From contig OZ244937.1 in NCBI GenBank assembly GCA_965222075.1, forward strand, positions 3,616,001 to 3,680,000: a DNA stretch of 64,000 nt. Reading direction: 5' to 3'. Numbering within the stretch: the stretch's first letter is position 1; the number at the start of each line of letters is the position of its first letter. This DNA comes from Candidatus Latescibacterota bacterium. Its GTDB lineage: Bacteria > Latescibacterota > UBA2968 > GCA-2709665. This document shows positions 23,835 through 64,000 of this stretch, piece after piece. The notes under the pieces were generated by a model that made no database searches, was not told the DNA's origin, and worked only from the letters and a program-made list of their open reading frames with translations. The position numbers and the translations under genes are program-made.

Positions 23835-23846
23835 AGGGAACCAAAG

Positions 23847-27116: not shown

Positions 27117-27143
27117 CCTGTCTGCGTGCAACGCACAGGCAGG
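27117..27143 (-). repeat. 27-bp hairpin insertion element, copy 2
   Basis: CCTGTCTGCGTGCAACGCACAGGCAGG on +; removal restores STTDPIKKG. Confidence 0.85.
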
Positions 27144-27449: not shown

Positions 27450-27474
27450 CCTGCCTGTGCTGAAGGCAGACAGG
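27450..27474 (+). repeat. 25-bp hairpin insertion element, copy 3 (opposite orientation, variant loop)
   Basis: CCTGCCTGTGCTGAAGGCAGACAGG; removal repairs the frameshift to PVFRRQWPS. Confidence 0.85.
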
Positions 27475-28317: not shown

Positions 28318-28320
28318 GAA

Positions 28321-28563: not shown

Positions 28564-28828
28564 TGTTCCGCCCTGTCCGCCGGTAAGCCGATAGAGAATT
28601 GGGGATGGGACGCCAGATCTCAACCCTGACTCTGGTCGATTGTGAAAAGTGTATCCTGCGCGAGGCCAGAGACGGTTTTGGCGACCTTCCGGAGTACTAC
28701 CCGTGCCCGCGAGACCAGGCAATCGAAGCGTCTCGGCGGGTCGGAGACGCTGGAGTTCACGGAGCGGCTGGAGTTGGAGATGCCGCAGTGTCTGCCCCGC
28801 ATCGCCCGTTTCAGGGGACCCGACCGGT

Positions 28829-33476: not shown

Positions 33477-34667
33477 TCAGGCACGGGCGTGCTGGGACTC
33501 GGCCAAGACGCGGTATTCCACGCACAGGTGCGGGGTCTCTAAGCGCGGGTGGCCCTGGAGGCGGGAGGTGAGGCAGCTTTCCAAGGCGCCGCTGACCAGG
33601 AGGGTGCGCTGGATAGGATAGGGGGCTTTGCCGGTTGTGATCATCTCTTCGATTTTGGCTACTAAGCAGGCGGAGTAGGTGACGTTGGGGGTGGGGGAGA
33701 GGAAGAACTGAGTGGAGACCGGGTTGGGTTCGCCTTTGAGGCGGGCGGCAAAACAGTAGTCTTTCACCGCGCCGTTGAGCATGAGGAGGGTTGCGTTCAG
33801 GCCGTTGTTGTATTCGAGGAGGTAGGCAGCGGGGTTTTCAGCGAGTTTGAAGAGTTCGCCGCTGCCGAGGAGGTCCTGGGTGCGGCCGTCTTCCTCGGTG
33901 AGGCCTCTGGGGGAGTCGGATCGGGAGAGGGCGGCTTTCAGGAGTTCTTTGGACCAGCGCCCGTCCTCGCCGGCCTGCCAGACATCGTCACCGTCGATGA
34001 GCTGGACGGCTTTGACGCCGGTTTCACCACCACTGCGGCGTTCGACCATGCATTGCATGCCTTCCAGGGCGTGGTAGTCCATGGGGTCCGAGCTGCCCAC
34101 GCCAACCATAAGGGCGCTTTCGATTTCGCAGTCGAGGGGAAGTTCCAGGTCGGGCAGGCGCCAGGTGACCGGGATGGACGAGCCGGCCAGGAGAGGGAAG
34201 TCCAGGCGGCGGGCGTCGTCGATCATCTCGCGGGCCTTTTCAAAGCTGTAGGAGAGGTGCTTGTCGTTGTAGACGGGCACCGAACGGCCGTCTTCCTCGA
34301 AGACGGTGACGCATTCCTTGAAGAATTCGTAGCGGGGGTAGAGTTTCTGCCCCTTTTCGTTTGTGGGATACTCGCCGTGCTCACCGATGATCAGCACGGC
34401 GTCAACGGCGAGTTCGGACCCGCCGCAGCGGAGGGCTTCAGAAATGGTGGGATAGACATGAAAACCGAATTCGCGGGCACGGTCGGCGCTCTGGTCGCCT
34501 TCGGGGCGCTGGTCCACGTAGAGGGAGACGATTTTCGTGTTGGGGTGATGCCAGCGGCCCTGGTGGGGATAGCCGACCAGGAAGCGGTCGGCAAAGTGCT
34601 GGGCGTGGGAGAGGTAGCGGTAGATGGTGGCGATGACGGCGATGCGTCTTGGCGTTTTGGATGTCAT
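33477..34667 (-). CDS. Conserved hypothetical protein, remotely Gfo/Idh/MocA-like; paralogue A
   Basis: Shares SLYVDQ, IGEHG(E/D)YPTNEKGQ, NDKHLS, AGSS.PVTWRLP and QCMVERR with the adjacent gene. Confidence 0.7.
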   Translation of the reverse strand: MTSKTPRRIAVIATIYRYLSHAQHFADRFLVGYPHQGRWHHPNTKIVSLYVDQRPEGDQSADRAREFGFHVYPTISEALRCGGSELAVDAVLIIGEHGEYPTNEKGQKLYPRYEFFKECVTVFEEDGRSVPVYNDKHLSYSFEKAREMIDDARRLDFPLLAGSSIPVTWRLPDLELPLDCEIESALMVGVGSSDPMDYHALEGMQCMVERRSGGETGVKAVQLIDGDDVWQAGEDGRWSKELLKAALSRSDSPRGLTEEDGRTQDLLGSGELFKLAENPAAYLLEYNNGLNATLLMLNGAVKDYCFAARLKGEPNPVSTQFFLSPTPNVTYSACLVAKIEEMITTGKAPYPIQRTLLVSGALESCLTSRLQGHPRLETPHLCVEYRVLAESQHARA

Positions 34668-34805
34668 TTAAGTTCTCCGGAATGGTTTGAATATTCTGAT
34701 CGTTAGCTTCAGTTCCGCTCAACCCGCAGCACCACATCGGACAGGCATCCCGGGCAGATCATAGTCGTGCTTCCATAGGCACATCAGTCCCCGGTTGGGA
34801 GGGCC

Positions 34806-35999
34806 TCATGTCCTCCAGAAGGTCGATTCTTTTGTGGGCAGATACGCGATGTTCAGGTGCGGGGTTTCGATGCGTTTGTGACCTTCGTGCAGGCTGTCCA
34901 CGCCGGCGACGACGAGGCCGTTGGTGAGCAGGGTACGTTCAACGGGATAGGCCGGTTTGCCGGTGAGGAACATTTTCTCGATGTTGTTGACCTGGGGAGA
35001 GAAGAAGTTGGCCAGGGTGGTGTAGGCGGGGGGCATGGGGAGATACATCTGGGTGGAGAGGGGATCGTCCCGGCCTTCGAGGCGGGCGGCGAAGTTGAAG
35101 TCCCGCACCAGGCCGTTGAACAGGATCATGGTGGATTTGAGGCCGTCGGTATGTTCGTAGTGGTAGGCAATGGGGTCTTCGACGCGTTTTTTCAGGTCGT
35201 CTGTGGTGGGGAAGGTATTGTTGAAGCCCGGCCGCGAGGGGGTGAGGGTGTGGCTGCGGCAGAGGGCGGCTTCAAAAAGGTCGCGCGACCACACTTCCTT
35301 ATGGTGGGCCTCCCAGAAGTTCTCACCCCGGTAGGCCTGAAGCCATTTGACGCCGGTTTCGCCGCCTTCGCGCCGTTCGACCATACACTGGATCGTTTCT
35401 AAGGCGTGGAAGTCGTAGCTGTCCACACCGCCATAGCCGATACACAGGGCTTCCCGGACGCAGGCGCCCAGGGGCATGTCAATGGGGGGGAGGCGCCAGG
35501 TGACGGGCAGGGAGGAGCCGGCCATGAAGGCGAAGCCCATCTCTTGGGAGATGTCGTACATTTCTTTGGCCCAGTCCCAGTTCCAGGAGAGGTGTTTGTC
35601 GTTGAAAACGGGCGCCGTGCGGCCGGTGGTTCTGTAGACCGCGACGATCTGTTTGAAGAGTTCGTAGCGGGGGTAGAAGCGCTGGCCCTTCTCGTTGGTG
35701 GGGTAGTCGCCGTGCTCGCCGATGAGCAGGACGCCGTGCACGGCCAGGTCGCTGCGGCCCAGAGTGAGGGCGTCGGCGACGGTGGGATAGATGACCATAG
35801 AGGGGAAACGCTTTGCACGGTCCCGGCTCAGGTCGTTGTCCCCAACCTGATCAACGTAGAGGGAGACCAGGTCCATCGGGGGACGGTGGTGCCGGCCATT
35901 CCAGCCGTAGCCTTCTAAGAAGCGGTCAATGAAGTGCTGGGCGTGGGCGTATTTGTGGACAATGGTGGTGATGGCGGCGATTTTTGGGCGTTGTGGCAT
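34806..35999 (-). CDS. Conserved hypothetical protein; paralogue B
   Basis: Same motifs as paralogue A, 397 aa. Confidence 0.7.
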   Translation of the reverse strand: MPQRPKIAAITTIVHKYAHAQHFIDRFLEGYGWNGRHHRPPMDLVSLYVDQVGDNDLSRDRAKRFPSMVIYPTVADALTLGRSDLAVHGVLLIGEHGDYPTNEKGQRFYPRYELFKQIVAVYRTTGRTAPVFNDKHLSWNWDWAKEMYDISQEMGFAFMAGSSLPVTWRLPPIDMPLGACVREALCIGYGGVDSYDFHALETIQCMVERREGGETGVKWLQAYRGENFWEAHHKEVWSRDLFEAALCRSHTLTPSRPGFNNTFPTTDDLKKRVEDPIAYHYEHTDGLKSTMILFNGLVRDFNFAARLEGRDDPLSTQMYLPMPPAYTTLANFFSPQVNNIEKMFLTGKPAYPVERTLLTNGLVVAGVDSLHEGHKRIETPHLNIAYLPTKESTFWRT

Positions 36000-48602: not shown

Positions 48603-50354
<1,752 letters not shown>

Positions 50355-50388
50355 TTATGTCTGGTGATTTGGATCTGATATGCAACAC

Positions 50389-50423
50389 TAAAAAAAAGCC
50401 GCTTTCCGTAGGAAGACGGCCTT
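50389..50423 (-). terminator. Terminator of the TPP riboswitch expression platform
   Basis: GCCGTCTTCC-TAC-GGAAAGCGGC plus T-tract; its TTCCTACG is complementary to aptamer CGTAGGAA (antiterminator). Confidence 0.8.
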
Positions 50424-50460
50424 GAGACACGGTGAACACGTGTTGCAAGATCGTGAAATC

Positions 50461-50530
50461 CGCTTTCCTACGCTGGCATTACCCAGATCAGGTTCACAGG
50501 GTGTGATCTCAGCCGTTTGGCACCCCTTGC
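50461..50530 (-). ncRNA. TPP riboswitch
   Basis: Minus strand GGGGTGCC...GGCTGAGAT.ACACCC...GAACCTGATCTGGGTAATGCCAGCGTAGG, upstream of thiC. Confidence 0.96.
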
Positions 50531-50696
50531 GGATCTACACAAATAAAATAAGCAAAAAAGAACGATCCGTCAAGGGGGGAATTTCAGATATGTTTTATAA
50601 CTCTTTATCATTTGCTTTCGCTATTTTAACGGGGCGGTGGTCAGACGTTTCCGAAAAACTGAATTCGCCAAAAGTATAGCTGATGCTTTATCCTCT

Positions 50697-51581
50697 TCAT
50701 GTGTGGAGATGTGCACCCCTCTGGGCGCACATCCGCACATCAACTTCAAGCTGGGTGTCCCCGCCACCCTGGCGGACGCCGCGGGTTGGAGAGACGTCCT
50801 GGTAGTCGCGCCCCACCGCGATGCGCACGTGTCGCTCGTCGGCGAAGCTCCGGTTGGTCGGGTCGAAGCCGACCCAGCCGAGTTCCGGCAGCAGGCACTC
50901 GACCCATGCGTGGGTGGCATTTTCCCGCGCCTCCTCGCTGGATAGGCCGGTGTCGTGCAGGTAGCCCGACACATAGCGGGCAGGGATGCCCCAGGACCGG
51001 GCGATAGCGACCATGACGTGGACGTAGTCCTGACAGACTCCCCGGCCGGATTTGAGGATGTCCTCAATGGGGGATGCTGCCGAGGTGCTCCCCGGGGCGT
51101 AGTGGAAGCTACTGTGGAGCGTATTGGAAAGCCGTAACAGATCCTTGAGAGGATCGTCCTCGCGTTTGATGCCGTTTCGGTCAACGAAATTGGCAAGGGC
51201 GGGTGACGACTTGGTCAACTCACTCGGATGCGTGAAGTCCCAATGGGTGAAGGACGCCTTCCAGGAGTCGATCTCCTGCCAGGCACCTGCGCCGAGTCTG
51301 GATGGAAGCGGCGTAAAGGGCATCGGTTCGACCTTGGAGTGGACCGTTATCTCCAGGGCTTCGTGCTCCCGGTGGACGTTCAGAACATGTCGCGTGTTGC
51401 CGAAACAATCCGTTTCCCCGTTCAGGAAAGCCTGTGGTTTCGTTTCGATCTCGAAGCGAAAGAGCCGCTGACCCCTATCGTCGCGCGGCTTCAGGCAGAG
51501 CAACATCACGCACTGCCGCGCAGGCGACGCATAGCGATAGCGGGAGACGTGCTTGATTTCATACTGGATAATTTCGGCCAT
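50697..51581 (-). CDS. Transglutaminase-like protein with the bacterial N-terminal domain
   Basis: Triad GVCQD / HAWVE / FDPTN; GRDYQDVSP. Confidence 0.93.
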   Translation of the reverse strand: MAEIIQYEIKHVSRYRYASPARQCVMLLCLKPRDDRGQRLFRFEIETKPQAFLNGETDCFGNTRHVLNVHREHEALEITVHSKVEPMPFTPLPSRLGAGAWQEIDSWKASFTHWDFTHPSELTKSSPALANFVDRNGIKREDDPLKDLLRLSNTLHSSFHYAPGSTSAASPIEDILKSGRGVCQDYVHVMVAIARSWGIPARYVSGYLHDTGLSSEEARENATHAWVECLLPELGWVGFDPTNRSFADERHVRIAVGRDYQDVSPTRGVRQGGGDTQLEVDVRMCAQRGAHLHT

Positions 51582-51585
51582 AGCA

Positions 51586-52581
51586 TCAGCGTGCCGGGGA
51601 ATCCTCAATGGCGTAATCGATATAGGCAGCGGTCACGAGATCGTGAAGTTTCCGGCAATAATCCCTGACCTGCGCAAGGAGAGCCTCGTGGTCTTCTCGA
51701 TCCGGCCAATCATAATGGATCAGGGCGCACATACGGCTGGCCAGGCGGAGGGCCGCGGCGCTGGAATGTTCACCGGAGCCAGGACCAATAGCAGTGAGCT
51801 CCGCAACTGTCGCGTCGAGCGAGTAGCAAAGCGAGCCATGCAGCAGCGGGTCCGTCACGAGCATGTCCAACACCCGGCGCGGCTGGATATCAACGCTGTA
51901 GTTGCGGTTGTAGGCGTCAAACGCCTCGCAGACGCGCAACAGGTTTGCCCAGTTTGCGTCGAAGGATACGTCCGTTAGCTTGTCGGTGGCGAGTTGAGAC
52001 AGAAACAACACAGCCGAGCACTGGGCGCGTTCAATGAAACGCCCAAGCTGCAAGAAATGCCACCCTTCGTCGCGATACATGGTTGCCTCTGCCACGCCGG
52101 CAAAGGTGTTGATTTCACCTGCCGTTTCCGCGTAGAAACTCTCTGGGGAGGTCTTCCAGATTTCCTGAATGCTCAACTTCTGGAGCCGTAGATAGGCCAG
52201 GTTCAGACAGGTCCACATTTCAGCGCTGATGCAGTGACGCATCTGGCGGGCATTCTCACGGCCGAGGGAGAAACAACCCCAGACCGAATCGGGGTTCGAG
52301 CGCTCGAAAGTGAGATCATCGGCCAAAGTGTAGGAATCGGCCAGAGTATAGTCGTCGCTGCCGAGCAACTCGATACTGCCTCCAAGAGGCTGCCGGCTCA
52401 AGCTCATGTAGATTCGGCTCCAGCCGAAATAGATCTCCCGGATCGGCCGATCCACCAGAGCTTCCGCCTGCAATCGCAGCAGGCGGCAGAGATGCGCCGC
52501 CCGCTCCAGGTAACGGCCCATCCAATAGAGGCCCTGTGCGCTACGCGAAAGTAATCTCGGTCTTCCAGTAATCGTTTCCAT
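51586..52581 (-). CDS. Alpha-E (DUF403) protein
   Basis: LLSR.A..LYWMGRYLERA, RENARQMR, LGRFIERA. Confidence 0.92.
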   Translation of the reverse strand: METITGRPRLLSRSAQGLYWMGRYLERAAHLCRLLRLQAEALVDRPIREIYFGWSRIYMSLSRQPLGGSIELLGSDDYTLADSYTLADDLTFERSNPDSVWGCFSLGRENARQMRHCISAEMWTCLNLAYLRLQKLSIQEIWKTSPESFYAETAGEINTFAGVAEATMYRDEGWHFLQLGRFIERAQCSAVLFLSQLATDKLTDVSFDANWANLLRVCEAFDAYNRNYSVDIQPRRVLDMLVTDPLLHGSLCYSLDATVAELTAIGPGSGEHSSAAALRLASRMCALIHYDWPDREDHEALLAQVRDYCRKLHDLVTAAYIDYAIEDSPAR

Positions 52582-53972
52582 TAATCCTCGGTCTCGTCAC
52601 CTTCCTCCGGCATGAGCACAAACTCGGGGTAGGCCTCGATTCCCAGCTCCCCGACGTCTTGACCCAGCCGCTCGACCTGGACCGACACCCGGACACCCAG
52701 GGTCGCGGCAAGCACACGCCACAGCAGCCACGAGACCGAAAACACAAACACCCCAACCGCCACCACACCCAGCAGTTGCACGCCGAAGCTGCCGCCTGCG
52801 GCAATGCAGACCGCCAGCGTTCCCCAGATGCCGGCGAACAGATGGGCAGGCACCGCCCCGACGACATCGTCGATCTTCAACCTCTCCAGCAATTTGATTC
52901 CTATCGTGCAGAGGGTGGCTCCTACAGCGCCAATGATGACCGCCCAATAGTGGTCGACGATGTCAGGGCCGGCGGTAATGGACACCAGTCCCGCAATGGC
53001 CCCGTTCAGGCTGGCGAACAGATCCACGCGCCCGAGTATGGGTCGGGACAAAACGAGGGCCACCACGACGCCGGCTGCCGCCGCCAGGTTGGTGTTGACC
53101 AGCACATGACTCATGGCCAGCACGTCGACAGCACTCCCCAGTTTCAGCTGCGATCCGCCGTTGAAGCCGAACCAGCCGAACCAGAGGATGAAGACGCCCA
53201 GAGTCACTACCAGGATGTTGGAGGGCGGCGTGGCCTTGATAGTGCCGTCTTTCCGGTATTTTCCGAATCGTGGCCCTACGGCCAGTGCGCCCGCAAGCGC
53301 CGCCCAACCACCGGTGCTATGGACGATGGTCGAGCCGGCAAAATCCTTGAATCCCATTGCACTCAGCCACCCTCCGCCCCAGGTCCAGGCGCCGACGACG
53401 GGGTAGATGACGGCCGTCAGCACCAGCGTGAAGAGAAAGAAGGACCACATCTTAACCCGTTCGGCCAGCGTGCCGGAGACGATGGAGGCGGCGGTTGCCA
53501 CGAAGACCATCTGGAAGAACCAGTCCGACATGGTGGAGTATTTGTTCGCGATCACAGCGGCTTTCGCAGCCTCCTGTCCCGACACGAGGGCGAGATCATG
53601 AGTCGACGGCCCGTAGAGGAACTTGAACGAGCCGATCACGCTTCCCACGTCGGTGTACATCAGGTTATAGCCGATGAAGTAGTAGGCCAGTCCAGCTATG
53701 GAGTAGAGGCCGATGTTCTTCAGGCAGATCATGGAGGCGTTCTTGGTGCGCACCGAACCGGCCTCGAGCATGGTGAACCCGGCACACATCCACATCACCA
53801 TCGCACCCCAGACCAGGAACGAGAAGGTGTTGAAGACAAACATGGTCTCCTCGTCAACCGCCGCCTGTGCGGCGGCCGTCCCGCACAACAGGCAGCCAAG
53901 CACCGCCAGCGTCTTTCCCCCCAGGGCACCGCCAAGGCGTTTATGGACAGGGACTTTCATGGATTCTCTCAT
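52581..53972 (-). CDS. amt: Ammonium transporter
   Basis: AGFTMLEAG, FFQMVF, DFAGSTIVH, WFGWFGFNGGS, DD.VGAVPAH (both pore His present); AAAGGAG SD. Confidence 0.96.
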   Translation of the reverse strand: MRESMKVPVHKRLGGALGGKTLAVLGCLLCGTAAAQAAVDEETMFVFNTFSFLVWGAMVMWMCAGFTMLEAGSVRTKNASMICLKNIGLYSIAGLAYYFIGYNLMYTDVGSVIGSFKFLYGPSTHDLALVSGQEAAKAAVIANKYSTMSDWFFQMVFVATAASIVSGTLAERVKMWSFFLFTLVLTAVIYPVVGAWTWGGGWLSAMGFKDFAGSTIVHSTGGWAALAGALAVGPRFGKYRKDGTIKATPPSNILVVTLGVFILWFGWFGFNGGSQLKLGSAVDVLAMSHVLVNTNLAAAAGVVVALVLSRPILGRVDLFASLNGAIAGLVSITAGPDIVDHYWAVIIGAVGATLCTIGIKLLERLKIDDVVGAVPAHLFAGIWGTLAVCIAAGGSFGVQLLGVVAVGVFVFSVSWLLWRVLAATLGVRVSVQVERLGQDVGELGIEAYPEFVLMPEEGDETED

Positions 53973-54046
53973 ATCGTCTCCTTTCGTTGTTGAGCCATAC
54001 CGGCGAGATGCGTGGTCTATCTTACCAGAATAAAGGTCCCATCTGC

Positions 54047-55480
54047 TCAGTCTCCCAACACCCACAGGTCTTTGCCGCCTCCACCCTGACTGGAGTTCAC
54101 CACCAGGCTGCCCCGACGCAGGGCGACACGGCAGAAAGCGCCAGGCACGATACGTGTCTCGTGGCCATGGAGCACGAATGGACGCAGGTCAACGTGGCGC
54201 GGCTCGACTCGGCCATCGATCAGACAGGGCGCGCGGGAGAGCGCCAGGACGGGCTGCGAGATGAAGTCAGCCGGGTCGGCGCACACCTGCCTGACGTAAG
54301 TCTCACGCTCCTCGGGCGTGGCATGGGGACCCACCAGCATGCCGTACCCCCCGGACTCGCCAACACGCTTTACCACCAGGTTCTCCAGATTGTCGAGCGT
54401 GTACTCAAGGTCTTCCGGCCGGCGGCACAGGTAGGTCTCCACATTGGCCAGAAGCGGCTCTTCACCCAGGTAGTAGCGGATCATGTCAGGCACGTAGGCA
54501 TAAACGCTCTTGTCGTCAGCAACGCCCGTTCCGGGTGCATTCACCAGGGCAACATGGCCAAGTTTGTAGGCGTGAAGCAACCCGGGGACGCCCAGCAGAG
54601 AGTCCGGGCGGAAGACGAGTGGGTCGAGAAAATCGTCATCCACACGCCGGTAGATCACATCGACACGTCGGAGGCCGGTGGTGGTACGCATGTAAACGAA
54701 ACCGTCGTTGATGAGCAGATCGCGGCCTTCGACAAGCGCCGCCCCGATTTCGTGAGCCAGAAACATGTGCTCGTAGAAGGCCGAGTTGTAGACGCCGGGC
54801 GTCAGCAGCGCGATGCAAGGGTCGAACCGCCCTGCCGGGGCCAACTCTCGCAGGGTCTTGAGCAACATGTGCCCGTAATGTTCCACCTCCTGCACGCGAG
54901 AGCTTCTGTACAGACGGCGTAGACTTGCCTTCACCGCTTTGCGATTGGCGATCATGTACGAAACACCCGAAGGCACCCGCAGGTTGTCCTCAAGCACACG
55001 AAAGCCGTCGTTGGTACGCACCAGGTCGGTACCGCAAATAGAGACCCAGGCACCGTGGGGTGCGGAGAAGCCGCGCATCTCGATACGGTACTGGGGACAG
55101 CCACGCACCATGTCCGCCGGGATGACACCGTCGGCAATGATGCGCGCCTCGTTGTAAATATCCTCCAGGAAGCGGTTCAGGGCGGCAAGGCGTTGGGTCA
55201 GGCCGGTTTCAAGCTGCCGCCACTCGGCACCCGAGAGAATCCGGGGCAGGCAGTCAATGGGGATGATGCGCTCATCGGCCTCTTGGTCGCCGTAAACGGT
55301 AAAGGTGATGCCTTCGTTCGAAAACGAGCGCGTAACGCGTTCCTGGATGCTGCCAAGTTCCTCGGCAGAGAACTGGCTCAGTGTTTCGTAAAGCAGGCGG
55401 CAATGTTGCCTGGGGGTGCCATCCGGCAGGAACATCTCGTCGTAGATGGACGGATCAAGACCGTAGATGTCAAAGTCCAT
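54047..55480 (-). CDS. Circularly permuted type 2 ATP-grasp protein; start uncertain (55480, 55495 or 55564)
   Basis: YDEM, VLEDNLRVPSGVSY, YRRVDDDFLDP, GVADDK, VVNSSQGGGGKD. Confidence 0.95.
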   Translation of the reverse strand: MDFDIYGLDPSIYDEMFLPDGTPRQHCRLLYETLSQFSAEELGSIQERVTRSFSNEGITFTVYGDQEADERIIPIDCLPRILSGAEWRQLETGLTQRLAALNRFLEDIYNEARIIADGVIPADMVRGCPQYRIEMRGFSAPHGAWVSICGTDLVRTNDGFRVLEDNLRVPSGVSYMIANRKAVKASLRRLYRSSRVQEVEHYGHMLLKTLRELAPAGRFDPCIALLTPGVYNSAFYEHMFLAHEIGAALVEGRDLLINDGFVYMRTTTGLRRVDVIYRRVDDDFLDPLVFRPDSLLGVPGLLHAYKLGHVALVNAPGTGVADDKSVYAYVPDMIRYYLGEEPLLANVETYLCRRPEDLEYTLDNLENLVVKRVGESGGYGMLVGPHATPEERETYVRQVCADPADFISQPVLALSRAPCLIDGRVEPRHVDLRPFVLHGHETRIVPGAFCRVALRRGSLVVNSSQGGGGKDLWVLGD

Positions 55481-55564
55481 GGCTATCGATGCCATCTCCG
55501 GCCCACATTCGTCGAAGGCCACGCGAATGCGGTTACAGACGTCGTCCGGGATCTCCTCCGACAA

Positions 55565-57766
55565 TCAGAGCGCCTCATTATCGGTTCTTTCCTCCACCAT
55601 TGTCGGGGGCGCCGCCAGGGGTAATTCCACAACCATCTCGGTAAATTCGCCGGATTCGGTCGCGACCCGGATGGTTCCTCCGTGCTCCCGAACAATATCG
55701 TTGGACAGGGCAAGGCCAAGCCCGGTACCCTTGTCGGTCGGCTTGGTCGTGAAGAAGGGGTTGAAGATCTTATCGACGACATCGGGTGGAATTCCGCTCC
55801 CGTTGTCCCTGATGTAAATCTCGACGCCTTCCGGTCCGCGCCGGGTCCTTAGCCACAACGTTGGGGTGTAGGGCGCTTCGTCAGTCTCTGCTGGCGCACT
55901 TGTGCGTCGTTTCTCATCGGTCGCATGGCAGGCGTTGCTCACCATGTTGAGAAAGACGCGGCCCATGTCCTGCGAAACGACTTCGATCTGGCCCGTCTGC
56001 GGGTCCAGATCCTGCTTGATGTCAAGTTGGAAATCCGAATCGGCCGCCCTTGCGCTGTGGTAGGCGAGCCGGGCGTGTTCGTCAAGCAGGTTGTTGATGT
56101 CGGTGGGTTGCCGTCCGGCCGAGCCTCGGCCCATCGAAAGCATGTCGTGAACGATCCGGTTGGCGCGTTCGCCGTGTTCACGGATGCGCCCGAGGTTGTC
56201 GGTCAGGTCCTGGCAGATCTCCTGGATGAGCCCGCGCTGGTCTTCGTTCAACGTCCCGCCGCCCTCACTGAGGGTTTCCTGGAGTTCCTCCAGCAGTTCC
56301 TCCAGCAGTTCCTCCGAGACCTCTGAGAAGTTCTTGACAAAGTTCAGTGGGTTTTTGATCTCGTGGGCGACCCCCGCAGTGAGTTCACCGAGCGCCGCCA
56401 GTTTTTCGCGCATCACAATCTGGTCCTGTGCCCGCCGGAGGTCGGCCAACACCTTCTCGAGTTGGTCGTTCTTCTCTCGCAACTCCCCAGCCAGCTTTTC
56501 CACCAGGTTCAGGCGCTGGACCTCCAGGGCGTGGCGACGGAATACCTCCAGGGCCGCTGCCATGTCCGCGACCTCGTCGTTTCCGCCGATCTCGACCCGG
56601 GCCTCCAGGTCGCCATCGGCCATGCCGCGCATCCTGTCCGACAACCTTTCGAGACGGCGCAAAAGCACACGGCCGACGAACAGCCAGGCGATCAGTACCG
56701 CTCCGGTGATGCTGACCACGTTCAGCCCGAGCAAGACGTTGCGTCCGGTCCGGATCGCCCTCATGGATGCGTGGGTGGCTTCCTGTGTGCGCTCACGCGC
56801 CGCGCTGACCAAACCTTCAACCTCAGCGACGAGATCGATGGCGAGGTCTCGATTGCGCGCGATCAGGTTCCGCTGGCGCTCGACGAGCTCGAATTCTCGA
56901 ACGATCAGATCAAAGCCGCCCTGCTGCCCGACACCGAGTTCGAACAGTCGATTGAAGGTCGGAGCGATTTCACCGCGCCAGGGCGCTTTACCCAGAGCCG
57001 ACAAGCTCCGCTCGATACGGCCGGTGGTGGCCTCGAAACGTTCCCGCAGCGGTTCGAGCAAAAGGGCATTCGACAGATTGAATGCACCTGCCAGAAGCTG
57101 CGTTGCGATGGTGGCGTTCGCCTGCAATTCCGCCAGGTGGCGGTATCGGTCGAACTCATCATCCGAGAAATGCCGCTCGCGAGGCATCGGCGGTTGACCC
57201 AATGTCCGATAGCCCGTCATCGCGTAGAAGAGTTGGTCGTCAATAGCCGGAACCAGCGTGCTGGACAGTTTGCCCCCCAATTCCGCCAGTTCCACGCGCA
57301 ACGCTTCGCTACGCGCACTCACCTCGAACAACTCGGCCACCTCACGTTCAATGGCTTCAATATTCGACGTCAGCGCGCCGGCATAGTCGCGGATGCGGCT
57401 GTAGCGTTCCTCATCCTCTTTTTTAACGTCCCGCCGCATCAGGGCCGCCAATTGCGTCTCAAAGGCCTTCCGCTCTTCGGCGATTTCGGCGGTGACGCGG
57501 GCGAAGTCCTCTTCTGTCGCGGCAGCAGTCAGACGCGGGGCGGCAGCAACCAATGTACCGCTCTGCTGCGCAACTCCGAAGGCAGCCGCCATCTCCGGGA
57601 CGCTGCCCTCGTTGACACGGCTTTGTACATCGCCCACGCGATTGAAAGAAGACCAGCCGACCAGACTGGCGCCCATGGTGAGGGCGACGGCGCCTCCGAT
57701 CCCCAGATAGAGTTGCGTGGCGATGCGGAAGCGGCTCTCAAGCAGGCGTTTGAGCGTGCGGATCAC
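55565..57766 (-). CDS. Membrane sensor histidine kinase (helical extracytoplasmic domain, HAMP, HisKA, HATPase)
   Basis: Two TM segments, DEVADMA, AHEIKNPLN, DNGSGIP, PFFTTK, GTGLGL. Confidence 0.93.
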   Translation of the reverse strand: MIRTLKRLLESRFRIATQLYLGIGGAVALTMGASLVGWSSFNRVGDVQSRVNEGSVPEMAAAFGVAQQSGTLVAAAPRLTAAATEEDFARVTAEIAEERKAFETQLAALMRRDVKKEDEERYSRIRDYAGALTSNIEAIEREVAELFEVSARSEALRVELAELGGKLSSTLVPAIDDQLFYAMTGYRTLGQPPMPRERHFSDDEFDRYRHLAELQANATIATQLLAGAFNLSNALLLEPLRERFEATTGRIERSLSALGKAPWRGEIAPTFNRLFELGVGQQGGFDLIVREFELVERQRNLIARNRDLAIDLVAEVEGLVSAARERTQEATHASMRAIRTGRNVLLGLNVVSITGAVLIAWLFVGRVLLRRLERLSDRMRGMADGDLEARVEIGGNDEVADMAAALEVFRRHALEVQRLNLVEKLAGELREKNDQLEKVLADLRRAQDQIVMREKLAALGELTAGVAHEIKNPLNFVKNFSEVSEELLEELLEELQETLSEGGGTLNEDQRGLIQEICQDLTDNLGRIREHGERANRIVHDMLSMGRGSAGRQPTDINNLLDEHARLAYHSARAADSDFQLDIKQDLDPQTGQIEVVSQDMGRVFLNMVSNACHATDEKRRTSAPAETDEAPYTPTLWLRTRRGPEGVEIYIRDNGSGIPPDVVDKIFNPFFTTKPTDKGTGLGLALSNDIVREHGGTIRVATESGEFTEMVVELPLAAPPTMVEERTDNEAL

Positions 57767-58944
57767 GGCTCCATGTCCTGGAGCGTATCGATTGGATAAT
57801 AACGGCCGTCACGACCGATCACGGTCAGGAAGACAGCATCCGAACCCTGATTGTCCAGGTCGCCGTAGCGGAGTTCAAATCCGCCTAAATCGACGACTTC
57901 AGAGCGGCGGAGACTGTTGAGAAAGGAGGCTCGGCTGACCTCCCGGCCGCAGCGTTCCAGGGCGGCAATGGCCAGGCGACCGGCCAGGTAACCTTCGAAG
58001 GAGACGAAACCGGGAACGGCGTCGGAGGCGTAGGCTGCCAGGGCCCGACGGTAGGCGGCAGCGACAGGGAAGGTGTCGTCCGTTGGAAACGGCACCACCT
58101 GGGTGACAAAGACCCCGGCTCCAGCGCCACCAAGTTGTCTGGCCAGTGCGTTGCTGCCCACGAAAGAGATGGTTATAAAGGCGGAGTTCATACCAGTGTG
58201 CCGCGCCCAGGCGATTAACGTCGCAACTGGCTCGTAGGCTCCAATCAGGATCACTGCCTCGGGGTTTCCCCGGCGCAGATCGAGCAGAGCCGTTTTCACG
58301 GCCGTGGTATTGCGCGGATACAACCCGACTGACACCGCCTCCATTCCGCGCCTTTCGAGTGCGCGCCGCGCGCCCCGGTAACCGGCGCGACCGAAGGAAT
58401 CGTCCTGGTACATCACGGCGATGTGCTTTAAACCCAGGTCGCCGGTCAGCCGGGCAACCATCTCCTCCGTCTCCTGATTATAGGAAGCGCGCAGGTTAAT
58501 CACGTTGTTCCACTTTGCTTCGCGCAGGAAAGCAGCGCCGGTAAACGGGGCGATGTAGGGAACGCTCGCATCTGCAGCGACTGGAGTGGCGGAACGCGAC
58601 GTCGGCGTGCCAACGGCGCCGATGAGCGCGAAGACCTCTGCTTCCTTGATCAGGTAGAGGGTGTTGGCAATGGCCGCTTCCGGTTCGTAGGCATCATCAA
58701 GAGACACGAGTTCCAACCGCCGACCGTGGACACCACCGCGCTGATTTGCCTCCTGGAAAGCGGCTTCAATCCCGCGCCTCATGTCGGTGCCGAGCTGCCC
58801 GGCGGGGCCGCTGAAGGCGGCGGACTGGCCGAAGAGAATGCGCCGATCGGAGACGCCTGTTTCCTCCGCGTGGCCTGCCGTAGCTGCCAAGAGCACTGTC
58901 CACGCGACGAACAGCCAGACCGCCTGGTGGGGCGTCCGTCTCAT
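57763..58944 (-). CDS. LivJ/LivK-type substrate-binding protein with no cognate transporter nearby
   Basis: GQSAAFSGPA, GGVHGR...LDDAYEP, VGTPT, RASY. Confidence 0.9.
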   Translation of the reverse strand: MRRTPHQAVWLFVAWTVLLAATAGHAEETGVSDRRILFGQSAAFSGPAGQLGTDMRRGIEAAFQEANQRGGVHGRRLELVSLDDAYEPEAAIANTLYLIKEAEVFALIGAVGTPTSRSATPVAADASVPYIAPFTGAAFLREAKWNNVINLRASYNQETEEMVARLTGDLGLKHIAVMYQDDSFGRAGYRGARRALERRGMEAVSVGLYPRNTTAVKTALLDLRRGNPEAVILIGAYEPVATLIAWARHTGMNSAFITISFVGSNALARQLGGAGAGVFVTQVVPFPTDDTFPVAAAYRRALAAYASDAVPGFVSFEGYLAGRLAIAALERCGREVSRASFLNSLRRSEVVDLGGFELRYGDLDNQGSDAVFLTVIGRDGRYYPIDTLQDMEP

Positions 58945-59360
58945 CTGGTCCTTCGCTTGATCAAGGTCAGGTGGTTCCGGTGCTGCTCTCGCCGATAGTA
59001 CATTTCGTCCATCATCGTAAGCACCAGATGAATGCCGAGTCCGCCCACAGGCCGATCTTCGAGCGCCGCTTCCAGATCGGGCTGTGGCGCGTCCTTCAGG
59101 GGATTGAAGGGCCGGCCGTCGTCCGTGATTTCAATGGTGATGGCGTCCGCCGTCGAGGTCAATGTGATCTCGATCTCTCCAGGATCGCCGTCGAGCCCAT
59201 GTCTGACGATGTTGTTCCCGAACTCCTCGATGGCGAGGTCGACCTGGTGGACAAGGCCGGGGGGCCACTTCTCCTGCTGCCCGAGGTCCTCGGCGGCGAC
59301 GGCGACCCGCCTCAGTTCATCGAGATTGGCTTCAATCCGAAAGGATCTTTTCGCGCTCAC
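58941..59360 (-). CDS. RsbW-like anti-sigma factor/Ser kinase
   Basis: LAIEE..NNIVRHG, DDGRPFNP, RPVGGLGIHLV. Confidence 0.92.
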   Translation of the reverse strand: MSAKRSFRIEANLDELRRVAVAAEDLGQQEKWPPGLVHQVDLAIEEFGNNIVRHGLDGDPGEIEITLTSTADAITIEITDDGRPFNPLKDAPQPDLEAALEDRPVGGLGIHLVLTMMDEMYYRREQHRNHLTLIKRRTR

Positions 59361-60532
59361 GTCTCTGTCCCCTCGTGGCGCAACGCCAGGCAGGTGATAT
59401 CGTCGGACTGCGGGGTATCTCCCACAAAGGCTTTCACGGCCTGAAAGACCGCCAGGTTGGCTTCCCGGGCGTCCCCCTGGGGAGCGGCCACAAAGACTTC
59501 GTGCAGACGCTCGACCCCAAACTCTTCCTGTTTGTCATTCATGGCTTCGGTAACACCGTCCGTATAGAGAACGACGGTGTCGCCAGGTGCGAGGGTCACG
59601 GTGTTGTGCTGGTATTGGATGTCGGGTATCATCCCAAGGGCGATCCCGCCGGTCAGAGGAAGCAGGGTCGAGTTTCCATCAGCGTTGACGATGAGCGGAG
59701 AATTGTGCCCACCATTGGCGTATAAGAACTCTCCACTCGCCGGATCGAACACCGCGTAGAAAACGGTGACGAACATCGCAGCTTCGTTGTTCTCGTAAAG
59801 CAAATGGTTGACCTCGCCCAGTACCTCACCCGGATCGGGGCTGCCGATGGCCGCGCCCCTCAGCAGCGTGCGGCTGGACATCATGAAGAGCGCGGCGGGC
59901 ACACCCTTGTCCGAGACGTCTGCGATTGCCAATCCAATGCGACCGTCCTCAAGAGGGATGATGTCGAAGAAATCGCCGCCCACGTTGCGTGCGGGCTCCA
60001 TGCTGCCAGAAACCTGGTAGGTGGGGCTCTCGGGAAACCGTGTGGGAAGAATCGATTGCTGCATCTTGCTGGCGACATCGAGTTCGTTCTGTATCGCGAT
60101 CAACTGGTCACGCGACTCGAGCGCCTCGCGCCACTCGACCATATGGCGCACGGTCCGGTCGATGGTGACCTGCAGGTCCTTGAAGTCAATCGGCTTGGTG
60201 ACGAAGTCGAACGCGCCCCGGTTCATCGCCGTGCGGATGTTCTTCATGTCGCCATACGCCGAAATGATCACGGAACGGATGTTGGGGTCCACTTTGGGGA
60301 TCTGTTCCAGCAGCGTGAGACCGTCCATCTGAGGCATGTTGATGTCCGAGAGCACCATATCGATGTCCTCGTCTTCGTTCAACCGCTCAAGGGCCTCCAC
60401 ACCGTTGCTGGCAAAGACGAACGCGTAGCGGCCGGCGCGAATGGCGCGCCGCATGCGCTGCAGCATAAGCGGTTCGAGATCAGGCTCGTCATCGACGACC
60501 AGAATTTTGTATGGTTGTTCTATCATTCTCAC
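59357..60532 (-). CDS. Receiver domain plus PP2C phosphatase (RsbU/SpoIIE-like)
   Basis: LVVDDE, SDINMP, VGGDFFD, ADVSDKG, YTDGVTEA, DDIT. Confidence 0.95.
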   Translation of the reverse strand: MRMIEQPYKILVVDDEPDLEPLMLQRMRRAIRAGRYAFVFASNGVEALERLNEDEDIDMVLSDINMPQMDGLTLLEQIPKVDPNIRSVIISAYGDMKNIRTAMNRGAFDFVTKPIDFKDLQVTIDRTVRHMVEWREALESRDQLIAIQNELDVASKMQQSILPTRFPESPTYQVSGSMEPARNVGGDFFDIIPLEDGRIGLAIADVSDKGVPAALFMMSSRTLLRGAAIGSPDPGEVLGEVNHLLYENNEAAMFVTVFYAVFDPASGEFLYANGGHNSPLIVNADGNSTLLPLTGGIALGMIPDIQYQHNTVTLAPGDTVVLYTDGVTEAMNDKQEEFGVERLHEVFVAAPQGDAREANLAVFQAVKAFVGDTPQSDDITCLALRHEGTET

Positions 60533-60595
60533 ACTCCAGCAGATCCAGTTTCTCTTGACGGTTGGAAATGAGGTAACGATTTCCTCACAAACAGG

Positions 60596-62257
60596 TCAAC
60601 GCGGCTGCTCTTCGCCCATCTGCTCCAGCTCTTCGGCGATTTCGTCCATCAGGAGGACCAGGTCCAGGACATCTTGGCTCGTGACCGTACCCAGAAACTC
60701 ATCTGAGTCCCTGTCCAGGACGGGTATCACCGACAGCGAGTGATCCGTCATGCGCTTCAGCACGTCCTGGATCGGCTCTTCAGGCAGGGCGTGCGGCGGG
60801 TCCGGGCGCAGCACGTTGCGAAGGGACGTGTCCGCCCAGGAGTCCCTGGGGACGGACGGTAGCCTGGACAGCGACACGATCCCTGCAACGGCGCCTTCGT
60901 CAACCACCACGTAGTCGTGTTGATTCGGCACGATCCAATCGTCGACAAAACTCCTGAGCGACAGCGTTGACTCGGAATAGGTCCGCGTTCTGTCCAGAAC
61001 GTGATTGGCGGTAATGTCTTCCATCGCGTGGCGGGCGAACGAAGGCGGCACAGCGTCCGGCGGTGTAGGGCGGTGCACCCCCCTGGCTCGCTTGACCGCG
61101 AAACTGATCGCCTGAGGCATCAGCACAATGTAGCCGAACATCACGAGCACGAGCAGTGAGAAGACATCCTGCTCGATCACGTCGGTCTCGAGGAGGACGA
61201 GGAGAAGCGCGATCTCCGCCACGCCTTTCGCCATCAGTCCCGCGGCCTGAGCGTAGGGTTTATCCAGCCGCGCCACATAGGTACCGATGAAGGCGCCGGC
61301 GAACTTGCCCAGCAAAGGGATCGTTACCAGCGCGACAATCGTCGCCATCGGCAAGGTCGTAAAAGATAAGTCCAGGCGCAGACCAGCCGAGGCGAAGAAG
61401 AGTGGGACGAACAGGCCCTCCCCTGCGCTCCGAATACCGGGCATAACATCCCGGTGCACCTGACGGGGCAGCCCCGACAGGGCCGCGCCGAAAAGCAGGG
61501 CCCCGATAGAGCCGTGGAGACCGATTTTCTCGGCCACCACCACCATCAGGAAGAGACAGCCGATCAGCAGCCCGAATGACAGCTCGGGCACGTTCAGGAA
61601 GCGATGCAGGTAGACGATGGTGGGCGGCAGGACCCTGGCCGACAGGATCCACGCAACGACCGCGAAGCCTGCGATTTGCCCCAGCAGAATGAGCACGCCT
61701 GCGACGCTCAGTTCGGGGTGGTGTTGGTGTTCGCCAATGGTGAACCCGACCAAGAGCAAGATGATCAACTCGGAGATGATCACCGTGGTGAAAATCTCAA
61801 GCCCGATCGGTTCCTTGAGATACCCATTGTCGGCGAGTACCTTGGCCACAAGGCCCAGGCTGGACAGCGACAGGATGCCGGCTAAGGGCAGCGCCTCCTT
61901 GAACTGGAGGTTGAGGGCGAAATCAACCTTGAAGAGGTTGGACGTGACGACCAGGGCCGCGAGCAGCGAAATGAGCACTGACACGGTCGCGGCGAAGAAA
62001 AACCGGCCGCGGATTGTTGCCACGAAGCCTGCTATATCGATTTCATCGAGGCCAACCAGGAAGAAGAGGACGAAGACGCCGATGCCCAAGAAGAGCTGGA
62101 GTTTGCTCGTCGGCTCGACTATCCCGGCGATGGGTCCAAGCAGGATGCCAGTCACCGTGTACGCGACGATCGAATTCAAGCCAATCCGGCCAAGAATACC
62201 CTCGGCGAGCTTGGCCACGACAACCAGCAAACCGATGGGCAGTAAGGCTTCGATCAT
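60596..62257 (-). CDS. Cation:proton antiporter (CPA2-like) with a C-terminal CBS pair
   Basis: Multiple TM segments, GILLGP, FVPLFFAS.G, GKFAG; C-terminal CBS-like repeats. Confidence 0.88.
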   Translation of the reverse strand: MIEALLPIGLLVVVAKLAEGILGRIGLNSIVAYTVTGILLGPIAGIVEPTSKLQLFLGIGVFVLFFLVGLDEIDIAGFVATIRGRFFFAATVSVLISLLAALVVTSNLFKVDFALNLQFKEALPLAGILSLSSLGLVAKVLADNGYLKEPIGLEIFTTVIISELIILLLVGFTIGEHQHHPELSVAGVLILLGQIAGFAVVAWILSARVLPPTIVYLHRFLNVPELSFGLLIGCLFLMVVVAEKIGLHGSIGALLFGAALSGLPRQVHRDVMPGIRSAGEGLFVPLFFASAGLRLDLSFTTLPMATIVALVTIPLLGKFAGAFIGTYVARLDKPYAQAAGLMAKGVAEIALLLVLLETDVIEQDVFSLLVLVMFGYIVLMPQAISFAVKRARGVHRPTPPDAVPPSFARHAMEDITANHVLDRTRTYSESTLSLRSFVDDWIVPNQHDYVVVDEGAVAGIVSLSRLPSVPRDSWADTSLRNVLRPDPPHALPEEPIQDVLKRMTDHSLSVIPVLDRDSDEFLGTVTSQDVLDLVLLMDEIAEELEQMGEEQPR

Positions 62258-62463
62258 GGACGGGCTCTCATATCCTCCGGGGATTCAGCAGGAAACCGGA
62301 GATTCCAGGACAAAACGCTGCCACTCACGCCGTTCATTCTATGCTCGATGACTCGAATAATCGCGCGAAACTGGTGTAGCTGCTGTGTCATTTCCACCCT
62401 TGGCACTTCTTCACCAAGTTTACCATAACTGCTTCCGCGAAGCAGTCCCGGACCGACCGCCTC

Positions 62464-62802
62464 CTAGCCGCTGATTGCCGCGAGCGCTTCGGATCGGGAT
62501 ACGTGGACCGGTATGATCTTGTCGAAGCCACTAATCTCAAAGACCTCCCTGATTGGATCTGAGAGCGAGCAGACCACGAATTCCTTGTCCCGTTCCCGAA
62601 GCGTCCTGGCAGTCAGCAGAATGACCCGAAGGCCCGCGCTGCTGATGTAGGAGAGCGCCTCAAAATCCATAATTACGGCACGATCGTCCTCGCCAATTGC
62701 GGCTTCAAGCGCATCCTCAAACTCACGGGCATTGGCACCGTCAACGCGACCCTCTATCTTCACGATCAAGGTTCCGTTTTCCCGCTCGGTGTTAACTTCC
62801 AT
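62464..62802 (-). CDS. STAS-domain anti-anti-sigma factor (RsbV-like)
   Basis: GRVD, YISSAGLRV, VFEISGF. Confidence 0.93.
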   Translation of the reverse strand: MEVNTERENGTLIVKIEGRVDGANAREFEDALEAAIGEDDRAVIMDFEALSYISSAGLRVILLTARTLRERDKEFVVCSLSDPIREVFEISGFDKIIPVHVSRSEALAAISG

Positions 62803-62885
62803 TGACCCATCTCCTTGATGTTGTGACCCAACCTCTAAGTTACGGTGTCCAAGAGTCTACTGGCAGTTGTGCTCTTGAAACCTGC

Positions 62886-62914
62886 TAAATAATAGGATTT
62901 TTGAAATGTGTCAA
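62886..62914 (-). promoter_or_regulatory. Putative sigma70 promoter for the STAS gene
   Basis: TTGACA-17 bp-TATTTA on the minus strand. Confidence 0.5.
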
Positions 62915-63143
62915 GCACTTTGAAACACCTGCTCCAGGCAAATTAAGAAAGAATATCCTGAGCGACAGAAGGTTCGGTACTTCGTCTGTCAGGTCTCAAT
63001 TTCCATACGCCAATATAGATCCTCTGAAACCATAAATCAAGCGCTTATTTCACGGCAAAGATAATGGCTTACATGAGTTTTTGACGCCGGGGAGACCGTA
63101 CGGCGGTGAAGTTTGCGCCCGGCAAGCCGCTGCAGGGCGTGTC

Positions 63144-63341
63144 TTAAGGGTAGAGCCTTTTGGGGCCCCGGTATATGTAGGTGACTTCCCGGACGTTGCC
63201 GATTCCCAACAGGAGCATCAGCATCCGGGTGAGGTCGCCCTGTTTTTGAGGTGTGTATTCCTGCCGGGCGAGGATCTCAACGGCTTCCGCCAGGGGGACC
63301 CTGGGAAAGGGGATTTCGGGAATTTCGACGGTGACGTGAGA
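63144..63341 (-). pseudogene. Remnant of an archaeal-type/non-discriminating aspartyl-tRNA synthetase with an internal deletion
   Basis: VEIPEIPFPRVPLAEAVEIL...KQGDL fused directly to the C-terminal LTRMLMLLLGIGNVREVTYIYRGPKRLYP*. Confidence 0.7.
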
Positions 63342-63477
63342 CGTCCAGGCAGACGGGTGGCGTGAGAGATTTCGGAGAGGTTGTGATGCGGTAGATAGGA
63401 CAACCGATGGTCATTGTTTTGTTCTCCAAATTCAGTTCATCACGAAATGCGATCAGGTCCGACATTTTTGGTTGGTT

Positions 63478-64000
63478 TTACCTTTCACCTTTTCTGCCGC
63501 CGAAGACGGCGAGTTCGAAGATTTTGAAATAACAGTCTACATCCTGAAATCCGATCCGCCGCAGCCAATCGCATTGTACTTCTACGGGGGCCAGGATGTT
63601 GGCCTGTTTATCCTCCCGGTGATAATATTCCGCGGCCAGTTCGTCCCGGGTTCGGGCGCCGCCCTGTGTTTGTTCGAGTTCGTAGAGGTTGTCTATAAAG
63701 TGGGTTTCAAAAAGGGATTCAACCCAGGCGGTGGCCGGCGCTACGTGTTCGATGTTGATAAAGATGCCGCCCGGGTTCAGAAGGTTGTGGATTTCTTTGT
63801 AGAATTCCTGTTTGCGTGCGTCGGGTTGATGGTGGATTGCATAACCGGATACGGCAGTATCAAAGGGGGCGTGTTTTTTTATAAATTCGACCCAGGCCGG
63901 ATCGGCGAAGTCGGCGTGGATAAAATGCAGGTTGCCCGCGTACGGTTTCAGGTGATCCCGAGCCGCATTCAGCATCGGTTCGGAGAAATCTATGAGTATA
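63478..64000 (-). CDS. Class I SAM-dependent methyltransferase; 5' end outside the window
   Basis: IDFSEPML, FDTAVSGYAIHH, LLNPGGIF, GFQDVDC. Confidence 0.88.
   Translation of the reverse strand, partial: ILIDFSEPMLNAARDHLKPYAGNLHFIHADFADPAWVEFIKKHAPFDTAVSGYAIHHQPDARKQEFYKEIHNLLNPGGIFINIEHVAPATAWVESLFETHFIDNLYELEQTQGGARTRDELAAEYYHREDKQANILAPVEVQCDWLRRIGFQDVDCYFKIFELAVFGGRKGER

Follow-up and report, generated by a model that had tools for sequence, protein, structure and literature searches.

A five-gene cassette combining a TorS-type sensor kinase with Rsb-type partner-switch proteins, and its nitrogen-gene neighbours

Which genes of a mixed signalling and ligase locus belong together, and what could they control? 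The locus lies in a 64,000-nt stretch of DNA from a Candidatus Latescibacterota bacterium (GCA_965222075.1, contig OZ244937.1, 3,616,001-3,680,000), the whole of which is called the window hereafter. Ten minus-strand open reading frames (ORFs) run there from a STAS protein to a transglutaminase-like protein. A first-pass annotation had given this order and had seen in it a partner-switching cascade joined to a ligase module that contains an ammonium transporter gene, amt. The order holds, the Pfam families agree and the catalytic residues are conserved. Three points emerge from the present analysis: (i) the conserved unit is made of five genes, i.e., a periplasmic binding protein (SBP), a TorS-type sensor histidine kinase, a REC-PP2C phosphatase, an RsbW-like kinase and the STAS protein, and not of the ten-gene string; (ii) on balance it appears probable that a TorT/TorS-like input has been grafted onto an Rsb-type partner switch which governs nitrogen scavenging via an unlinked target; (iii) as part of the same reading, amt and the trio of ATP-grasp, alpha-E and transglutaminase genes would be nitrogen cargo kept beside the cassette.

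The N-terminal 450 residues of the kinase served as query in one genome scan; relatives of this region at ≥66% identity number at least 120. The best 80 of 106 confirmed relatives make up the locus set (loci are designated by L numbers). Neighbours were counted within 10 kb of the kinase at ≥50% coverage, and residue conservation counts include the window sequence. Eight phylum labels are represented: Pseudomonadota (22 loci), Latescibacterota (19), Acidobacteriota (14), Chloroflexota (10), Nitrospinota (4), Gemmatimonadota (2), Verrucomicrobiota (1) and Spirochaetota (1); 7 loci are unassigned. The SBP gene is beside the kinase gene in 80/80 loci, REC-PP2C is present in 76, RsbW in 73, all three in 72 and STAS in 63. 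The cation:proton antiporter gene, which the first-pass annotation counted in the string and paired with STAS, is found in 5/80 loci and is lineage-restricted. From these counts five genes form the core, to which the antiporter was probably added locally, as a passenger.

The nearest relatives of the kinase are those of L001-L004 (support 100), which have the same neighbourhood and are labelled Ca. Latescibacterota (two), Gemmatimonadota (one) and unassigned (one). The window and a Terriglobia locus, L049, share 71-85% identity despite different phylum labels, which suggests that the cassette has spread horizontally. No close copy was found in the plasmid collection: 22 records matched, all below 60% identity, with 26-34% among the 15 matches listed.

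Several additions were seen around the cassette. tRNA genes abut it in L013 (6931-7007), L016 (7077-7153) and L027 (12280-12355), as possible integration sites; 5 of the 26 loci scanned for tRNA genes (out of 80) contain one. An additional REC-domain gene precedes REC-PP2C in several loci of the Nitrospinota clade and in L034 (L034 6599-7114, L036 6750-7190 and relatives). In Alphaproteobacteria (L015, L018, L061-L063, L013) a second SBP (35-37% identity), an sCache protein and a major facilitator superfamily (MFS) transporter stand beside the cassette. A second, distant Peripla_BP_6 protein is encoded between kinase and ATP-grasp in L003 (12412-13785, +) and L004 (12352-13773, +).

The residues are those of an Rsb-type partner switch, i.e., a PP2C phosphatase with its aspartates, a STAS-only protein with a conserved serine and a GHKL kinase of the RsbW/SpoIIAB type. 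STAS S55 is kept in 64/64 aligned sequences. In REC-PP2C, D63 and K113 as well as the PP2C metal-binding aspartates D187, D205, D325 and D378 are kept in 77/77. The N-box and G-box residues of the RsbW-like kinase (E46, N50, G106, G107 and G109) are kept in 74/74, and H468 of the sensor kinase in 80/80. The PP2C motif at residue 208 has two versions, DVSDKG (46/77) and DVSGKG (31/77).

The input side resembles TorS. The kinase matches the TorS model TIGR02956 (E 6e-48, 163.6 bits, below the cutoff of 676.5), and its match to Pfam TorS_sensor_domain is weak. Two hydrophobic segments (19-37 and 344-362) enclose a domain whose predicted fold is confident, with a pLDDT (predicted local distance difference test) of 92.3. 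Searching kinase residues 1-450 against PDB by sequence gave HAMP-level matches only. By structure, the six best Foldseek matches of the sensor model are all TorS (E 1e-6), and the comparison with TorS 3o1h gives Z 20.1 and a root mean square deviation (rmsd) of 2.8 over 257 aligned residues at about 15% identity. As modelled, the sensor domain carries the TorS fold. No REC or HPt match was obtained in the kinase with Pfam.

The first-pass annotation supposed that the orphan binding protein feeds the kinase, and this proposal fares well: the two genes adjoin in every locus, and the modelled contact exceeds its controls. Modelled together, sensor dimer and SBP reached a score of 0.74, against 0.00 for the best of three controls; 116 of 157 solved complexes attain this mark, as do 2 of 215 mismatched pairs, and both figures are only roughly applicable here. 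Model runs agree in ≥96% of contacts, with a partner pLDDT ≥91. It must be kept in mind that the pass may reflect likeness, since the TorT-TorS complex is already solved. The predicted interface includes residues invariant in 71 sequences, i.e., D176, F180, T184 and P239 of the kinase and E89, K217 and W246 of the SBP; the sequences are the window's own and those of 70 loci, the other ten of the 80 being omitted as truncated, short-called or redundant. The models thus support a contact of the SBP with the kinase sensor. The wiring from SBP to kinase, REC-PP2C and STAS/RsbW, also proposed initially, is likewise judged supported, the phosphotransfer itself being presumed.

The initial «LivJ-type» label of the SBP is right at the level of the fold only. 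The LivK ligand residues, which we take to be S79, T102, Y202 and E226, align (2lbp) to T113, G136, A236 and S260; three of these four amino-acid-binding positions differ. T113, G136 and S260 are kept in 80/80 sequences and A236 in 69/80. A true LivJ/LivK protein was rejected because the ligand residues are not kept. No ABC permease adjoins the SBP gene in the window. The closest solved relatives (4kv7, 3lop and 4m88) are structural-genomics entries with generic names, and the ESM Atlas gave generic Peripla_BP_6 clusters only, with no lead to a ligand.

What surrounds the cassette is frequently related to nitrogen. An intact nitrogen gene (amt, trio, glnE or P-II) is present in 45/80 loci, and in 41 of the 69 loci with full flanks. 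By kind, amt is found in 25 loci (24 of the marine subtype and one distant amtB), an intact trio in 17, glnE in 8 and P-II in one. The signalling and ligase halves therefore co-occur outside the window, as was first claimed, in three arrangements: the trio downstream with amt inside (L002, L003, L004, L049 and L073), upstream and co-oriented (8 Acidobacteriota), or divergent (4 Gammaproteobacteria). The amt gene may follow the kinase, lie at the cassette head in front of STAS, or form an inverted pair with STAS. Seven loci from Alphaproteobacteria have glnE in front of STAS, one of the seven in inverted form. In L015 amtB, P-II and STAS are consecutive, with a glutamine synthetase III gene nearby; in L022 glnD is about 4 kb from the cassette. 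Altogether 30/66 STAS genes are directly behind a same-strand nitrogen gene (amt 12, transglutaminase 10, glnE 7, P-II 1), an adjacency that is also seen in loci where an inversion has parted STAS from the cassette. The nitrogen role proposed initially thus receives independent support from the glnE and amtB-P-II neighbours; amt as a specific link between ligase and alpha-E does not.

Indeed 12 of the 17 intact trios are in loci without amt, and 20 of the 25 amt loci are without an intact trio; amt is associated more closely with the signalling genes than with the ligase. The order with amt inside the trio is nevertheless not unique to the window, as it occurs in 5/80 loci under several phylum labels. 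The alpha-E proteins of these loci cluster together (support 92), which is consistent with a single insertion. In L001 the trio is reduced to fragments on both sides of an intact amt (12225-14083). The ATP-grasp gene of L049 is split in two ORFs (12966-14401).

The window Amt reaches 521 bits against the «marine subtype» model TIGR03644 (cutoff 514). Its transport motifs are intact in 25/25 sequences, i.e., W198/S274 (Trp/Ser site), F157/F270 (Phe gate) and H218/H377 (twin His). The best PDB matches are two ammonium receptors, Sd-Amt1 (8qj3, E 1e-68) and Ks-Amt5 (6eu6, E 6e-57). Compared with Sd-Amt1, as described in the accessible text of PMC11152129, the equivalents of F25, E29, K44, N45 and N269 are retained, and three N2-site residues are replaced (Q22 by C63, D48 by L89, Y119 by F178). 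These replacements and the lack of a fused transducer or cytoplasmic domain (463 aa) led to the rejection of a receptor role; from its sequence, Amt is read as a transporter. It is not adjoined by P-II as in amtB-glnK operons: tblastn gave no P-II match across the window, in agreement with the initial claim, nor any glnE, and the single P-II among the 80 loci is with a different amtB.

The trio itself has its three genes in canonical order with intact catalytic motifs. ATP-grasp matches PDB 3n6x (E 5.5e-164), its EDN-R motif is kept in 18/18 sequences, and so is the Cys-His-Asp triad of the transglutaminase. alpha-E has no PDB sequence match under E 0.1; the best structural match of its model (pLDDT 87.5) has Z 10.6 and rmsd 6.7, values usual for helical bundles in general. 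No lead to a function came from this, nor does it make the fold a new one.

The neighbour inventory comprises 832 non-core genes (called at ≥60 aa) in 383 clusters, of which representatives (111 proteins and 287 clusters) were scanned with Pfam. No Anbu/proteasome or trimethylamine N-oxide (TMAO) reductase family was recognised among these 398 neighbour proteins. The window too is free of Anbu peptidase. The claimed absence of sigma factor and proteasome-like genes agrees with the Pfam scan of 46 window ORFs, from which ORFs below 150 aa in 1-44 kb were left out. Genes for sigma factors of the extracytoplasmic function (ECF) type occur at unrelated positions in the scanned representatives of L003, L021, L023 and L079, the scan covering neighbourhoods only. 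No sigma factor being a conserved neighbour, the switch probably acts on something encoded at a distance in the genome or on a target other than a sigma factor; STAS-only proteins of either behaviour are known, according to the part of PMC8256260 consulted.

The preferred reading, i.e., a TorT/TorS-like input on a partner switch, can be written as five steps. The periplasmic SBP would bind the dimeric TorS-fold sensor in the way TorT binds TorS, as the complex model suggests. By analogy with TorT/TorS, binding of the ligand, probably an organic nitrogen compound or a small acid and not a branched-chain amino acid, would alter autophosphorylation at H468. The kinase would then phosphorylate D63 of REC, the sole receiver in the window cassette, and thereby switch the PP2C domain. 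PP2C and the RsbW-like kinase, whose residues are conserved, would set the phosphorylation of STAS S55 as in Rsb systems. Lastly, STAS or freed RsbW would act on a target from another part of the genome, the likeliest candidates being a sigma factor or a regulator; this target would control ammonium uptake, the ligase trio under nitrogen starvation and glutamine-synthetase control genes. This last step, drawn from the neighbourhoods, is the weakest one.

Several results weigh against this reading. No intact amt, trio, glnE or P-II is present in 35/80 loci; five of the 35 have remnants (L022, L029, L043, L051 and L057) and 30/80 show none, among them 4/4 labelled Nitrospinota and 9/10 Chloroflexota. 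Pairwise identities of amt and trio track those of the kinase (rho 0.79-0.89, 0/500 permutations). Such co-divergence would be expected from common descent no less than from a functional link; amt and the trio may therefore count as one event, which leaves glnE and amtB-P-II as the acquisitions that are clearly separate. The scan was one-directional, with the kinase alone as query and the best 80 of 106 relatives retained. The neighbourhoods yielded no output target. In a crude scan sigma54 sites are not enriched (9/205 locus upstream regions vs. a background of 2.65%); in four window regions no -24/-12 site was found at ≥9/11 positions. Forty-seven upstream regions have no common motif beyond sigma70-like boxes: the top spaced motif was counted 8 times, vs. 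5-6 when shuffled, and is explained by GC-rich words, close relatives and these boxes.

The association with nitrogen could also be a founder effect, in which a partner switch for general stress or lifestyle spread on a block that held amt and the trio, the rest being hitch-hiking and coincidences. Such a history would account for the amt and trio distances that follow those of the kinase, the 71-85% identities between the window and L049 across phylum labels, the 30 loci that hold the cassette with no nitrogen gene detected, and the decay of the trio beside a retained cassette in L001, L043 and L057. It is nevertheless judged rather unlikely, as the link outlasts several inversions and reorderings, unrelated nitrogen genes were gained separately (glnE; an amtB at 27% identity with P-II and glutamine synthetase III), and a 21-kb neighbourhood is, by estimate, only about 0.4-0.5% of a 4-6 Mb genome. 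A sigma-independent, post-translational control, in which STAS would stand in for P-II/GlnK and, depending on its phosphorylation, bind and gate Amt, GlnE or the ligase, is considered improbable. Three unrelated targets would be demanding for one small protein, P-II may lie elsewhere in these genomes, and adjacency to any upstream gene is expected because STAS is often the first gene of the cassette, although 30/66 is the proportion of STAS genes found directly behind amt, glnE, P-II or transglutaminase. This control would nonetheless agree with the rarity of P-II (1/80 loci, and with 0/24 marine-subtype amt genes), with the conserved C-terminal tail of Amt and with the non-sigma outputs known for STAS-only proteins such as SypA and BtrV (PMC8256260, in the part available). 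To the same low degree one may consider a horizontally spread, sigma-less system in which SBP and TorS-type kinase would read an external organic-nitrogen cue and set the phosphorylation of STAS, which would directly control Amt, GlnE and the ATP-grasp ligase and replace P-II/GlnK and NtrBC.

It is still harder to accept that Amt, ligase and alpha-E form one functional unit in which Amt would supply ammonium for nitrogen storage or tagging. The stop-start overlap of amt and alpha-E is present, and five loci (Latescibacterota, Gemmatimonadota, Acidobacteriota, Chloroflexota and unassigned) share the order ATP-grasp, amt, alpha-E, transglutaminase; on the other hand most trios and most amt genes occur without each other in the counts given above, amt has stayed intact in L001 with the trio decayed on both sides, and the alpha-E grouping fits a single insertion. 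As for a TorSTR-like system sensing TMAO for respiration, it is hardly credible: the TorS-fold sensor and the TIGR02956 match are set against a structural identity of about 15%, 163.6 bits for a cutoff of 676.5, an SBP of Peripla_BP_6 instead of the Peripla_BP_1 of TorT (PMC8050422, in the text accessible) and the lack of TMAO-reductase families among the scanned neighbours.

Taken singly, the parts of the cassette are all of known kinds; no description of their combination, or of its association with nitrogen genes, was found in the literature searched. This search left out most subscription papers and all supplements, and the latter could hold neighbourhood tables. The closest input is that of TorT-TorS-TorR (E. 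coli, Vibrio; 3o1h), in which TorS is activated via the binding protein TorT, according to the accessible text of PMC8050422. In both systems an orphan SBP gene is beside a kinase with a bimodular four-helix TorS sensor, and the modelled dimer binding is alike. They differ by the SBP family (Peripla_BP_6, PF13458, with no PF00532 match at E 0.001, vs. Peripla_BP_1 for TorT), by a kinase with neither REC nor HPt match, by TorR and torCAD, which were not recognised among the 398 neighbour proteins, and by an output made of REC-PP2C/STAS/RsbW and not of a DNA-binding regulator. In the table of SBP-stimulated receptors of the same 2021 review, in the part available, Peripla_BP_6 proteins do not figure as partners of any sensor kinase (PMC8050422). 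On the output side, Rsb (RsbU/RsbP-RsbV-RsbW), SypA/SypE, BtrU/V/W and Pseudomonas PA3346/PA3347 have in common with the cassette a PP2C, a STAS serine, an RsbW-type kinase and conserved catalytic residues. The cassette differs from them by its SBP-gated TorS-type kinase, the lack of a conserved sigma neighbour and the linkage to nitrogen genes. The nearest nitrogen-related partner switch is NfsS/NfsR of Anabaena, which acts on nitrogen-triggered heterocyst differentiation via SigC/SigE, with another input and context as far as the consulted part of PMC13712970 goes.

The resemblance to GlnH-GlnX-PknG-GarA of actinobacteria is in logic only, i.e., an SBP that passes a small-molecule signal via a helical-bundle membrane protein to Ser/Thr phosphorylation steering nitrogen metabolism; the families are others (SBP_bac_3, 4HB_MCP_1, PknG and GarA, in the text available of PMC8050422), and the nitrogen output of the cassette is presumed. 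With Sd-Amt1 and Ks-Amt5 the window Amt shares sequence likeness, but it has no fused transducer and its N2 residues are replaced. The trio is that of the Anbu operon system by its canonical order, its catalytic motifs and its closest solved relative 3n6x; it differs by the lack of an Anbu peptidase in the window and scanned neighbours and by the insertion of amt in 5/17 trios. The parts consulted of the respective papers describe an Anbu operon induced by nitrogen starvation (PMC6376114, PMC5666114), a trio that co-varies with urea domains in marine metagenomes (PMC3597751) and a Burkholderia trio cluster dependent on NtrC/sigma54 (PMC5491218), whereas here no sigma54 promoter was found in the crude scan.

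Nitrogen control in bacteria is commonly ascribed to sensing inside the cell, by P-II, GlnD and NtrBC or GlnR. The cassette points to a nitrogen route by partner switching that responds to an external cue and is common to several largely uncultured lineages, and it may be an undescribed mode of bacterial nitrogen regulation. It is also a candidate regulator for the ATP-grasp/alpha-E/transglutaminase module, the product of which is described as unknown in the consulted parts of the cited papers. SBP, sensor domain, REC-PP2C, RsbW and STAS constitute a soluble chain open to in vitro rebuilding.

The features of the locus are collected in Table 1. Starts were refined from sequence and homolog lengths, the most likely ones being 55480 for ATP-grasp, 53972 for amt and 51581 for transglutaminase.

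Table 1. Positions in the window and domain content of the ten genes and of the predicted promoter region.
Feature	Position	Strand	Family and remarks
Sigma70-like promoter region 5' of STAS (prediction only)	62886..63040	-	TTGATT-17-TATATT 63040-63012; TTGACA 62914-62909
STAS anti-anti-sigma-type protein, 112 aa (core)	62464..62802	-	PF01740; phospho-acceptor Ser55
CPA-family cation:proton antiporter + CBS domain	60596..62257	-	Na_H_Exchanger PF00999 + PF00571
REC-PP2C (RsbU/RsbP-like) phosphatase (core)	59357..60532	-	Response_reg PF00072 + SpoIIE PF07228
RsbW/SpoIIAB-like serine kinase, 139 aa (core)	58941..59360	-	HATPase_c_2 PF13581; PDB 6m36 RsbW E 3e-4
Periplasmic binding protein (SBP), Peripla_BP_6 fold (core)	57763..58944	-	PF13458; N-terminal hydrophobic segment 8-26
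Sensor histidine kinase (core)	55565..57766	-	Transmembrane segment 1, TorS-type periplasmic domain 41-341, transmembrane segment 2, HAMP, HisKA (H468), HATPase
Circularly permuted ATP-grasp ligase, 477 aa as in L002	54047..55480	-	PF14403/PF04174; open frame to 55564
Ammonium transporter amt, 463 aa	52581..53972	-	Ammonium_transp; TIGR03644 marine subtype
alpha-E protein, all-helical, two ER motifs	51586..52581	-	PF04168
Bacterial transglutaminase-like protein, triad C183-H224-D240	50697..51581	-	Transglut_core PF01841 + Bact_transglu_N PF08379

The coupling overlaps reported in the first-pass annotation are all present: GTGA for PP2C/RsbW, ATGA for RsbW/SBP, GTGA for SBP/kinase and TAATG for amt/alpha-E. 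The antiporter is separated from STAS by 206 nt and from PP2C by 63 nt. The TTGACA box 5' of STAS is also found in L002 and L003. The kinase stop at 55565 abuts, in frame, the ATP-grasp open frame at 55564; this junction is probably due to chance, since homolog lengths favour the ATP-grasp start at 55480.

At third codon positions occupied by G or C, the share of G is 0.39-0.48 across the ten genes vs. 0.30 in the flanking thiC and methyltransferase genes, and the strand bias flips elsewhere in the window (48603-63999 and flanks were compared); this is weakly consistent with a foreign origin. Terminator-like sites in the window are at chance level (12 vs. 11.7). The Rfam scan of the window gave a thiamine pyrophosphate (TPP) riboswitch alone (50448-50537, minus strand), which belongs to thiC (48603-50342, minus strand) downstream of the transglutaminase gene; thiC trails the block in L001-L004 too. 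Farther away, Type I restriction-modification genes (helix-turn-helix (HTH)-HsdM, HsdS and HsdR) occupy 20341-31780 and are broken by transposase-like ORFs (24928-26481 and 26762-27505). Long ORFs with no Pfam match are found at 3822-5777, 18368-19900 and 33477-35999, the last being an adjacent pair with similar N-termini.

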